The notes: generated by a model from the letters alone, not told the origin. DNA of 63,737 nucleotides, filler included, from a bacterium (GCA_041690355.1; 3 parts of 3 records of this genome joined end to end with filler, not necessarily neighbours in it); one strand, 5' to 3'; counted from the whole stretch's first letter, positions 194 to 2,800 are shown. Made by a program: numbers and translations.

Positions 194-2800
194 ATGGCCC
201 GTACTCCCCGCAAGCCCGCTCGCAAACCCGCTCCGGCCGGAAAGGCCAGGAAACAGGCCCTGAAGAAGGCCGCATCCAAGGCAAAAGCCGCGAAGGCGCC
301 CGCCAGGCCCAAAAAGGCCACGCGTAAAACGCCGCCGACGGCGGGAAACAAGCCGACCGCGAAGAAACCCGTGGGGAAGAAGCCGGCGGCGAAGAAGCGG
401 GTTGCGAAGAAGGCAGCACCGAAGACGTCCGCATCCGCGAAGCGCTCTCCCGGCAAGCCTGCGGCGAAACGAAGTGCAAAACCGTCTTCCCGGAAGCCCG
501 TCGCGAAACGCGCCCCCGTCGGCAAGCCTGCGGCGAACCCGAAGAAGCGCAAGGCCGCGCCCGCCCGCAAGCCGGCTGTGAAGCCCGCGCGTACGAAGGC
601 CGCGGCACCGAAGAAGGCCTCAAGGAAGGCGGCGGCGAAGAAGTTTGGGAAGAAGACGGTTCCGAAGAAGACGGTTCCCGCCAAATCATCCATGTCCGCG
701 CGGAAGTCCGGAGCGAAGACCGTCGTCAAGAAAGCCGCTTACCGGAAACCGCCTGCGATCAAGAAGACGAGCGTGCGCAAGGTGACACGGTCTGCCGTCG
801 ACAAGGCTTCGACGAAGCGCGCGGCCAAGGCTTCGGCAGGGGCCGAGATCACCTCGGTGCTCGATGAGCGCCGCCTGTTCCCCCCGCCGGCAGAATTCGC
901 AAAGCAGGCGCACATCGGCAGCCGCGAGGAATACGATCGCCTGCGTGCCGAAGCAGAGAAAGATCCCGACGGATTCTGGGCGCGGCAGGCTGAGAGCCTC
1001 CACTGGTTCCGCAAGTGGGACCGCGTGCTCGAGTGGAAGGAGCCGTTCGCGAAGTGGTTCGTCGGCGGAAAGATCAACGTCTCGTACAACTGCATCGATC
1101 GCCACCTCGCCGACAAGGCCGACAAGCCCGCCATCGTGTGGGAAGGGGAACCGGGAGACGAACGCACGCTGACCTACCGCCAGCTGCACGAAGAGGTCTG
1201 CCGGTTCGCAAACGCGCTCAAGGCCGTGGGCGTGCAGACGGGCGATCGGGTGGCCATCTACATGCCGATGATTCCCGCTGCCGCCATCGCCATGCTCGCC
1301 TGCACGCGCATCGGCGCGACGCACTCGATCGTCTTCGGCGGTTTCAGCGCCGACGCCCTGCGCGACCGCATTCAGGATGCCGGCGCGAAGGTGGTCGTCA
1401 CGGCAGACGGCGGCTACCGGGGCGGCCGCGTGGTTCCGCTCAAGGATGCCGTCGACGAAGCGGTCGAGCAGTGTCCGACGATCGAGAAGGTCATCGTCTT
1501 CAAGCGCACGGGCCAGGGCATCAAGTGGAATGACGGCCGCGACGTCTGGGCCTCCGAGCTGCTCGCCGGTGCGTCCGCGGAATGCGAGGCCGTTCCGCTC
1601 GACAGCGAGCATCCGCTGTTCATTCTCTACACGTCGGGAACAACAGGGAAACCGAAGGGGATCCTGCACACCACGGGCGGATACCTGCTGGGCGCCGCGC
1701 TCACGACGAAGTGGGTCTTCGACCTCAAGGACAGCGACAAGTACTGGTGCACGGCCGATATCGGCTGGGTCACCGGCCACAGCTACGTCGTGTACGGCCC
1801 GCTCGCCAACGGCGCGACCACCTTCATGTACGAAGGCGCCCCGACGACGCCGAAGCCCGACCGCTTCTGGGACATCATCGAGCGCCACAAGCTGACGATC
1901 TTCTACACGGCGCCCACGGCGATCCGCGCGTTCATCAAGGCGGGCGATCCGTGGCCGCAGGGGCACGACCTCTCTTCGCTGCGCTTGCTGGGGAGCGTGG
2001 GGGAACCCATCAACCCGGAAGCGTGGATGTGGTATCACCGCGTGATCGGCAAGGAGCGCTGCCCGATCGTCGATACCTGGTGGCAGACCGAGACCGGCAC
2101 GATCATGATCAGTCCGCTGCCGGGGGTCACGCCGACGACGCCGGGGAGCGCCACGCTGCCGCTGCCGGGCATCGACGCCGAAGTCGTCGACGCCAAGGGA
2201 AAGCCCGTCGCGCGGAACAAGGGGGGCCTTCTCGTCATCCGCAAGCCGTGGCCGTCGATGCTGCGCACCATCTGGGGCGACGACGAGCGCTACCGCAAGC
2301 AGTACTGGAGTCACGTGAAGGGGTTCTATTTTTCGGGCGACGGCGCGCGCCGCGATGACAATGGTTACTTCTGGGTGCTCGGCCGCGTCGACGACGTGCT
2401 CAACGTCTCGGGTCACCGGCTGGGAACCGCGGAGATCGAGAGCGCGCTGGTCAGTCATCCCACGGTCGCCGAGGCCGCGGTCGTCGGCCGCCCCGACGAC
2501 CTGAAGGGGACGGCCATCGCGGCCTTCGTGATCCCCCGCGGCCGCACGGCAGAGCAGGCGAATGCCGATGCTTCGCTGCGCGACGCCCTGCGCGCCCATG
2601 TGGCCAAGGAGATCGGCCCGATTGCGAAGCCGGATGACATCCGCTTCACCGACGCGCTCCCCAAGACGCGCAGCGGCAAGATCATGCGGCGCCTGCTGCG
2701 CGATCTGGCGGCAGGAACCAAGCTCGGCGACACGACGACCCTCGAGGACGCGCGCGTGCTGGAAATCCTCCGCGAGCAGGAAGAGGGCGACGAGGAATAA
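194..2800 (+). CDS. acs: Acetyl-CoA synthetase (acetate--CoA ligase) with a long Lys/Ala/Pro-rich N-terminal extension
   Basis: GGAGG at 181-185 precedes ATG194. Acs motifs: [58 protein letters not shown] and [11 protein letters not shown]. The catalytic domain starts near [15 protein letters not shown] (~845). Confidence 0.95.

Follow-up and report, generated by a model that had tools for sequence, protein, structure and literature searches.

Bacterial nucleoid proteins and a few DNA enzymes are known to carry disordered tails rich in lysine. Mycobacterial HupB and Streptomyces HupS are HU proteins with lysine-rich tails; these and chlamydial Hc2 are dedicated nucleoid proteins. Actinobacterial topoisomerase I has a lysine-repeat C-terminal tail, which is thought to hold the enzyme on a polyanion. 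Acetyl-CoA synthetases (Acs) are not known to us to carry such tails, and we know of no nucleic-acid substrate of Acs. In eukaryotes, nuclear ACSS2 of animals and yeast Acs2 supply acetyl-CoA at chromatin and are localised by other means. In the excerpts of two papers, KPAA-type tails are described as binding DNA and RNA and as positioning polyphosphate or PHA granules (AlgP, PMC9239181; PhaF, PMC12818456). A full-text literature search found, among the matches listed, no paper on an Acs with a histone H1-like or lysine-rich N-terminal tail, and nothing was found that treats lysine-rich extensions of metabolic enzymes in general.

We analyzed an acs gene that lies at the start of a 63,737-nucleotide window (the whole stretch of DNA under study, joined from three records of one bacterial genome). 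An earlier note on this DNA had described one uninterrupted frame, which runs from a GGAGG-N8-ATG start through a basic region with internal nucleotide repeats into a complete Acs. The reanalysis agreed with it on each of these points. The frame is stop-free, the GGAGG is in place, the core models are matched at full length, and the repeats are present. The tail peptides that the note quoted and its PKTRSGK motif were all found in the translation. The features are as follows.

194..2800, plus strand: tail-bearing Acs open reading frame, stop-free, 868 codons (868 aa) from ATG194 to TAA2800
181..185, plus strand: Shine-Dalgarno GGAGG, read off the sequence, 8 nt ahead of ATG194
194..844, plus strand: Lys/Ala/Pro-rich tail of 217 aa, predicted disordered (from translation, composition, pLDDT and the tailed relatives P0153-P0156)
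339..412, plus strand: 15-nt (5-codon) imperfect tandem repeats, about 4.9 copies, encoding A-K-K-x-x-like units
637..678, plus strand: 15-nt tandem repeat inside the tail, 2.8 copies
845..2797, plus strand: complete AMP-forming acetate-CoA ligase core (from Pfam, NCBIfam, PDB relatives and the AF2 fold)
2660..2680, plus strand: PKTRSGK motif, with K829 at 2678-2680
2798..2800, plus strand: TAA stop codon, from the sequence

By its sequence, the core belongs fully to the AMP-forming acetate-CoA ligase family TIGR02188/PRK00174. NCBIfam PRK00174 (NF001208) matched residues 220-864 with 1075.5 bits against a cut-off of 657, and TIGR02188, whose model begins at residue 220, scored 1021.3 bits against a cut-off of 724.95. 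Three Pfam domains were found, all above cut-off: ACAS_N (residues 247-300), AMP-binding (302-686), and AMP-binding_C (747-829). The closest solved structure was that of Salmonella enterica Acs (1PG3 and 2P20), in which residue 10 aligns to residue 232 here. Since the Acs models start at residue 220 and the S. enterica enzyme aligns in this way, the N-terminal extension is about 217-220 aa long. AF2 predicted a confident Acs fold from residue 221 on. The PKTRSGK motif (P823 to K829) and the P-loop-like motif (residues 479-489) were invariant in an alignment of 24 Acs. K829 occupies the position of the catalytic lysine that is switched off by acetylation in other Acs enzymes. The catalytic core would act as in an ordinary Acs.

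The tail has an extreme composition. Its 217 residues contain 56 K, 55 A, 27 P, 20 R, 16 S, 13 T, 1 D, and no E, with a pI of 12 and a net charge of +75. Lysine makes up 26% of the tail versus 2.6% of the long ORFs of the genome (4.64 Mb, 65.6% GC), an enrichment of about tenfold. The imperfect tandem repeats of the tail have periods of 12, 15, and 30 nt. As every one is a multiple of three, they form the pattern that in-frame slippage would give. The AF2 prediction, based on a 24-row alignment, gave block-mean pLDDT values of 28-42, which were below 50 throughout residues 1-220. A single short helix (residues 18-28) was predicted in the tail, and there was no folded segment in residues 1-220.

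The earlier note had likened the tail to those of HC2, AlgP, and HupB. The likeness stood for composition and went no further. The tail alone scored 17.6 bits (E = 0.0042) with the HC2 model (PF07382), whose cut-off is 40. Five KP[AV][AV] motifs were present, scattered over the 217 aa rather than arranged in a tandem KPAA array. Among Pfam matches at E values up to 0.1, there was no linker-histone family and hence no H15 winged helix. A phmmer search with residues 1-217 found the query itself as the sole match among 7995 candidates, and a search of the PDB with the tail gave no match. In the ESM Atlas, the tail gave only a lead to an HC2-like cluster, whose score of 0.76 is too low to be meaningful. 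The lack of a phmmer homologue and of a PDB match, the sub-threshold HC2 score, and the predicted disorder together indicate that the tail is a compositionally conserved disordered region and not a member of a domain family.

The DNA around the tail was also inspected. Only one of the six frames, namely the Acs frame, is stop-free across 194-844. Upstream, this frame is open as far as window base 2. Window base 1 is base 1 of the contig, so the sequence upstream of acs is limited to 193 nt. A dispersed palindromic repeat adjoins acs; it lies upstream of the start codon and away from the tail-core junction. The GC3 of the tail coding region was 0.78. The codon-usage score of the tail frame was not the highest among the six frames and does not discriminate frames in the tail, which is expected because the composition is so odd. 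Scans of 1-3000 found no consensus promoter and no Rfam match.

The earlier note had proposed a search of Acs relatives for the extension. In a collection of 5.8 billion proteins, scores were calculated for 8000 Acs, of which the best 120 were considered. In-frame tails were found on the four nearest relatives, all in other assemblies. These four best matches after the query (P0153-P0156) were 955, 914, 745, and 765 aa long, with Lys/Ala/Pro/Ser/Thr-rich tails of 305, 262, at least 94, and 116 aa, respectively. The other 115 among the best 120 of the 8000 Acs were 646-669 aa. Three of the four tailed relatives start with MA[RK], and the present protein starts with MARTPRK. P0155, with the tail of at least 94 aa, has V as its first residue and may have been truncated by the end of a contig; P0156 had a precomputed PF07382 match. 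The four relatives come from three separate source collections, one contig apiece. Because just one frame is stop-free across the tail region and the tail recurs in four independent assemblies, a chance open frame was excluded.

A maximum-likelihood tree was built from the cores only (49 rows, tails removed). The five tailed enzymes fell on one side of a branch with an SH-aLRT of 98. One change suffices to explain the tail on this tree, and none of 500 label shuffles was as good. Within the tailed clade, cores differ by 18% or more and tail length spreads more than threefold (94-305 aa). The five tails could not be aligned except for their first residues and the junction. All five have a net charge per residue of +0.21 to +0.43, and hydrophobic residues are scarce. 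These comparisons indicate that only the composition of the tail is kept between relatives, not its sequence. A MAG of the sister genus (G001, bacterium isolate 15dZY3.bin.127) has a tailed Acs, and a metallo-beta-lactamase-fold gene downstream of acs is syntenic here and in this MAG. Two genomes of the same phylum (G002 and G004) encode Acs without the tail.

Other proteins of the genome were found to carry similar segments. A six-frame scan for 50-residue windows with at least 10 lysines returned ten open frames including Acs. One was a 111-aa standalone protein with AAKKP-like repeats, which exceeded the HC2 cut-off with 51 bits. HU has a C-terminal tail of about 50 aa, pyruvate phosphate dikinase (PPDK) has an N-terminal tail of about 75 aa, and a RidA-family protein has an N-terminal tail of about 70 aa. 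Two proteins without Pfam matches have tails of about 170 and 230 aa. Lysine-rich segments were also present in a DUF1801 protein, in a PlsC-type acyltransferase, and in a TonB-like protein, for which linkers of this kind are normal. An Acs paralogue on contig C2 was considered as a second tailed Acs and rejected; its 1043-codon open frame is spurious and has no lysine-rich tail.

Lysine-rich tails are a habit of this lineage, with the one on Acs as the longest instance. In the earlier note, acs had been called the most unusual single gene in the window. It is unusual among Acs enzymes, but it is less singular than that claim implied, as about nine other proteins of the genome carry such segments. 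In the sister genus, PPDK likewise carries an N-terminal tail (about 120 aa), and at least two tails, those of Acs and PPDK, are stable across genera in these comparisons. The RidA tail was absent from G001 and from the same-phylum genome G002. Since tail length varies over threefold in the Acs clade and the RidA tail is genus-specific, some of the lysine-rich tails may be weakly selected. At the nucleotide level, the Acs tail matches both the HU tail and the HC2-like gene at only 70-75% along some 100 nt, a level consistent with a common composition rather than a recent duplication.

The distribution of such extensions on Acs elsewhere was surveyed. Among 164 genome and metagenome loci with a core N-terminus, only the sister-genus contig (fetched twice) and L019 were flagged; L019 encodes an Acs that is 44% identical and has a weakly basic 41-aa extension. 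None of the 71 metagenome loci had a lysine-rich extension. Eight matches with N-terminal overhangs among the 50%-identity representatives were examined, and none was lysine-rich. Four apparent long matches (L070, L073, L089, and L024) were rejected: the frames were spurious or belonged to other genes upstream.

Among 401 sampled genomes, the N-part of Acs was matched at E ≤ 1e-40 in 197; 150 matches were considered, and 102 further ones were left out. Upstream DNA was inspected at 32 places with open frames of at least about 700 aa and at one relative. Among the matches listed, basic N-extensions on Acs were present in three genomes of this sample, which belong to two unrelated families. G297 has a 51-aa extension (MAKAMKRSVKPAKAK...), with GGGAG ahead of the ATG and no other start before the core, and G142 of the same family has a 35-aa extension. 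G343, of the other family, has a 42-aa extension (MPAKKKAKAPVKSS...), with GGAG ahead of the upstream ATG. G312 was marginal, with 12 residues. The count is a floor, because short tails in frames under 700 aa would be missed. These cases indicate that polybasic N-extensions on Acs arose more than once and that the present tail is by far the longest. The tail-Acs fusion itself is real and rare, and it occurs in a small group of uncultured bacteria.

Our main reading, to which we give a probability of about 55%, combines three elements: a translated tailed Acs, a disordered tail shaped by slippage and kept for its charge, and an electrostatic tether to nucleic acid. Translation from ATG194 would yield a functional AMP-forming Acs that has a disordered, polycationic N-terminal tail of 217 residues. 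In-frame repeat slippage would lengthen and shorten the tail, and selection would retain its charge and composition, not its sequence. The tail would hold the enzyme electrostatically on polyanions, most probably nucleoid DNA and/or RNA. Acetyl-CoA would then be made at the polyanion, or the enzyme would be concentrated or sequestered there. Nucleic acid is the most likely partner because the same kind of tail is present on the HU and the HC2-like protein of this genome, which are nucleoid proteins by family. By analogy with such proteins, the tail probably binds nucleic acid, and this may affect localisation or regulation.

The main rival to the tether is that the tail is a tolerated low-complexity product of slippage, translated and without a specific partner or role. 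At most, it would help solubility or ease initiation through its A-rich early codons. The repeat periods of 12, 15, and 30 nt, the unalignable tails of 94-305 aa, the genus-specific RidA tail, and the mixed set of tail-bearing proteins are all consistent with it. We nevertheless consider it possible rather than probable. The composition runs against mutational bias, because lysine reaches 26% in a genome of 65.6% GC. Enzymes of the clade retain the tail although their cores have diverged by 18% or more, PPDK has its tail in both genera, and tails recur independently on Acs in other families. An effect on initiation codons would also be insufficient to account for 217 residues.

Another reading takes the tail as an acetyl-lysine sink or switch. 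Its 56 lysines lie beside the site of acetyl-AMP and acetyl-CoA; acetylation would neutralise the tail, free the enzyme, and link acetate supply to enzyme location or nucleoid state. The PKTRSGK motif is intact, and the genome encodes a deacetylase of the sirtuin type. In Streptomyces, according to the excerpt of one paper, acetylation weakens DNA binding of lysine-rich HU tails (PMC11229371). The deacetylase gene argues little for the switch, as sirtuins are common and the same search matched 10 of 14 control genomes. No acetyltransferase gene was found beside acs in the regions checked, and we regard the switch as doubtful.

A broader version of both ideas makes Acs a nucleoid-resident enzyme and a counterpart of nuclear ACSS2. 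The tail would park the enzyme on DNA beside the tailed HU and the HC2-like protein, acetate would set local acetyl-CoA and thereby chromosome acetylation and compaction, and acetylation of the tail would release the enzyme. This proposal is speculative, and we hold it to be improbable to the same degree as the switch. If it were true, the repeated polybasic N-tails on Acs would point to a general, unrecognised link of acetate activation with nucleic acid.

We then considered where translation starts. The in-frame candidate starts are GTG131, ATG194, GTG371, GTG578, ATG692, GTG773, GTG782, and GTG857. Pairing energies were calculated with an anti-Shine-Dalgarno motif that we take from general knowledge. 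ATG194 had the strongest pairing (-9.5 kcal/mol, equalled by 0.5% of in-gene positions), followed by GTG131 (-8.4 kcal/mol) and GTG857 (-5.7 kcal/mol). ATG692 had -2.4 kcal/mol, and the remaining candidates had -3.4 kcal/mol or weaker. The earlier note had found no ATG near the core, with the closest at 692. ATG692 is indeed the sole in-frame ATG between ATG194 and the core, and it leaves 51 basic residues; the claim overlooked the in-frame GTG codons at 773, 782, and 857.

These codons allow the view that the tail is untranslated or a minor form. The enzyme would then start near the core (at GTG857, GTG773/782, or ATG692), and the open frame ahead of it would be a chance feature of GC-rich DNA. 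Pairing at GTG857 is moderate, and long spurious frames do exist in this genome, for example ahead of the Acs paralogue on C2. However, GTG857 falls within a conserved I-x-S-V-L motif, present in ordinary Acs proteins, which initiation there would truncate. In the sister genus, the in-frame starts of acs are a GTG, an ATG (MARKSTK, with GGGAG ahead), and a TTG at residue 28, and the next start is a Met 26 residues inside the conserved core. None of the start codons of this gene would thus yield a whole enzyme without its tail, and translation of the tail is therefore obligatory in that genus. Moreover, 94-305 in-frame codons of the same extreme composition are kept in five assemblies, three of the four relatives share the MA[RK] beginning, and the other five frames of the tail region contain stops. 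A late start is very unlikely on this evidence. The tailed relatives, the start codons of the sister genus, and the pairing at ATG194 support the genuine translated fusion that the earlier note proposed, and comparative data indicate that the tail is translated from ATG194 as part of the enzyme. GTG857 may be a secondary internal start in this genome.

Polyphosphate granules were considered as the anchoring site. The Acs and PPDK reactions form AMP and PPi, and the tails of these two enzymes are conserved in both genera. A tether of both enzymes to the granules would resemble that of the AlgP KPAA tail, which, in the excerpt of that paper, associates with polyphosphate granules (PMC9239181). 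The present genome, rated 100% complete, gave no match to PPK1 (PF02503) or PPK2 (PF03976), whereas searches for these families did match control genomes. Polyphosphate is therefore disfavoured, and such a tether is scarcely to be expected. For a link to PHA granules, only a 26-bit partial PhaC_N match was obtained. Targeting to a bacterial microcompartment was rejected, as no BMC shell family was found in the genome.

An assembly chimera, with a false junction of tail and acs at about 845 close to the end of a contig, has a negligible chance of being correct: the gene does lie 193 nt from the contig start and next to a dispersed repeat, but the chimera is ruled out because the architecture recurs in four other assemblies from three source collections and in the sister-genus MAG with downstream synteny kept, and the repeat precedes the start codon and does not sit at the junction.

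The tailed Acs offers a natural test case for the effect of polycationic disordered regions on a soluble metabolic enzyme, because the lineage has a conserved Acs tail of 94-305 residues and a PPDK tail, and shorter independent versions exist on other Acs. The tail might, for example, tether the enzyme to the nucleoid or to RNA, drive the formation of condensates, or switch its charge on acetylation. Because Acs is readily assayed and much is known about its acetylation switch, the full-length and tail-less enzymes lend themselves to direct comparison.

Compared with described systems, the enzyme part is ordinary. S. enterica Acs (1PG3/1PG4 and 2P20; TIGR02188) has the same full-length core, which corresponds to residues 220-864 here, the same three Pfam domains, and the PKTRSGK lysine. 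The solved S. enterica enzyme begins at about residue 223 of the present protein, which has 217 polybasic residues extra in front. ACSS2 and yeast Acs2 offer a functional analogy only, which implies no homology of the targeting part.

The tail resembles several known tails. As far as the excerpts of the two papers describe them, the KPAA domains of AlgP and PhaF are likewise Lys/Ala/Pro-rich, predicted to be disordered, variable in repeat number, and attached to a non-histone module; they are C-terminal, consist of 9-25 near-perfect KPAA units, and belong to granule or regulatory proteins (PMC9239181, PMC12818456). In contrast, the Acs tail is N-terminal, irregular, and attached to a metabolic enzyme. 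Chlamydial Hc2 (PF07382) and the lysine-rich HU tails have the composition of the Acs tail, which scored below the HC2 cut-off. By analogy, the tail is of the H1/HC2/AlgP/PhaF kind, yet it falls outside each of these groups as they are defined. The actinobacterial topoisomerase I shares with the tailed Acs a polybasic disordered tail on an enzyme, and differs from it in having DNA as its substrate.

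Besides Acs, pyruvate phosphate dikinase (PPDK) carries a lysine-rich N-terminal tail, about 75 aa long in the genome under study (G000:C20:43156-46056, L107) and longer in the sister genus, at about 120 aa (G001:C254, L111). PPDK is a second AMP- and PPi-forming enzyme of central metabolism with a conserved tail. Other proteins with lysine-rich segments in the genome under study (G000) include the following four.
C17:33976-35148 (L106), protein with a lysine-rich N-terminal tail of about 170 aa
C25:14351-15703 (L109), protein with a lysine-rich N-terminal tail of about 230 aa
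C2:148666-149001 (L102), standalone AAKKP-repeat protein of 111 aa, scoring above the cut-off of the histone H1-like family HC2
C20:55368-55799 (L108), HU protein with a lysine-rich C-terminal tail of about 50 aa
The first two had no Pfam hits, and the tail of L109 contained KAVKPT and KAAKPA units in tandem. The AAKKP-repeat protein and the tailed HU are likely nucleoid proteins of the lineage.

The acs gene is flanked by three features in the window.
22-118, three-arm palindromic element directly upstream of acs, arms GGTTGGAGGAGGAGGGGGA, TCCCCTTCTCCCTCCAACC and TGGAGGGAGAAGGGGA
2800-2865, two heptamer tandem arrays directly 3' of the acs stop codon (ATTTACG x4.7, CGAGTGA x4.4)
2943-3596, metallo-beta-lactamase-fold hydrolase gene, downstream of acs
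The 16-nt core of the palindrome was present in 13 copies in the genome, several lying no more than about 200 nt from contig ends (C10, C35 and C34). The element resembles a dispersed repeat of REP or MITE type, and the assembly appears to break at its copies. An Rfam search of window positions 1-3000 gave no match for the heptamer arrays. Synteny of the hydrolase gene with acs was kept in the sister genus.

Shorter basic N-terminal extensions (35-51 aa) were observed on Acs of two unrelated families, one represented by G297:C26 (L227) and G142:C594 (L226), the other by G343:C19 (L228). In G297 and G343, a Shine-Dalgarno motif precedes the upstream ATG of the extended acs. The extensions of the two families appear to be independent gains.

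The tails of two close Acs relatives contained less basic stretches (residues ~150-260 of P0153 and ~15-35 of P0154), in which an A-x-K-V-A-A-x-V-R-like motif was repeated. These repeats look like amphipathic helices. A difference is that the window's Acs tail has no such stretches.
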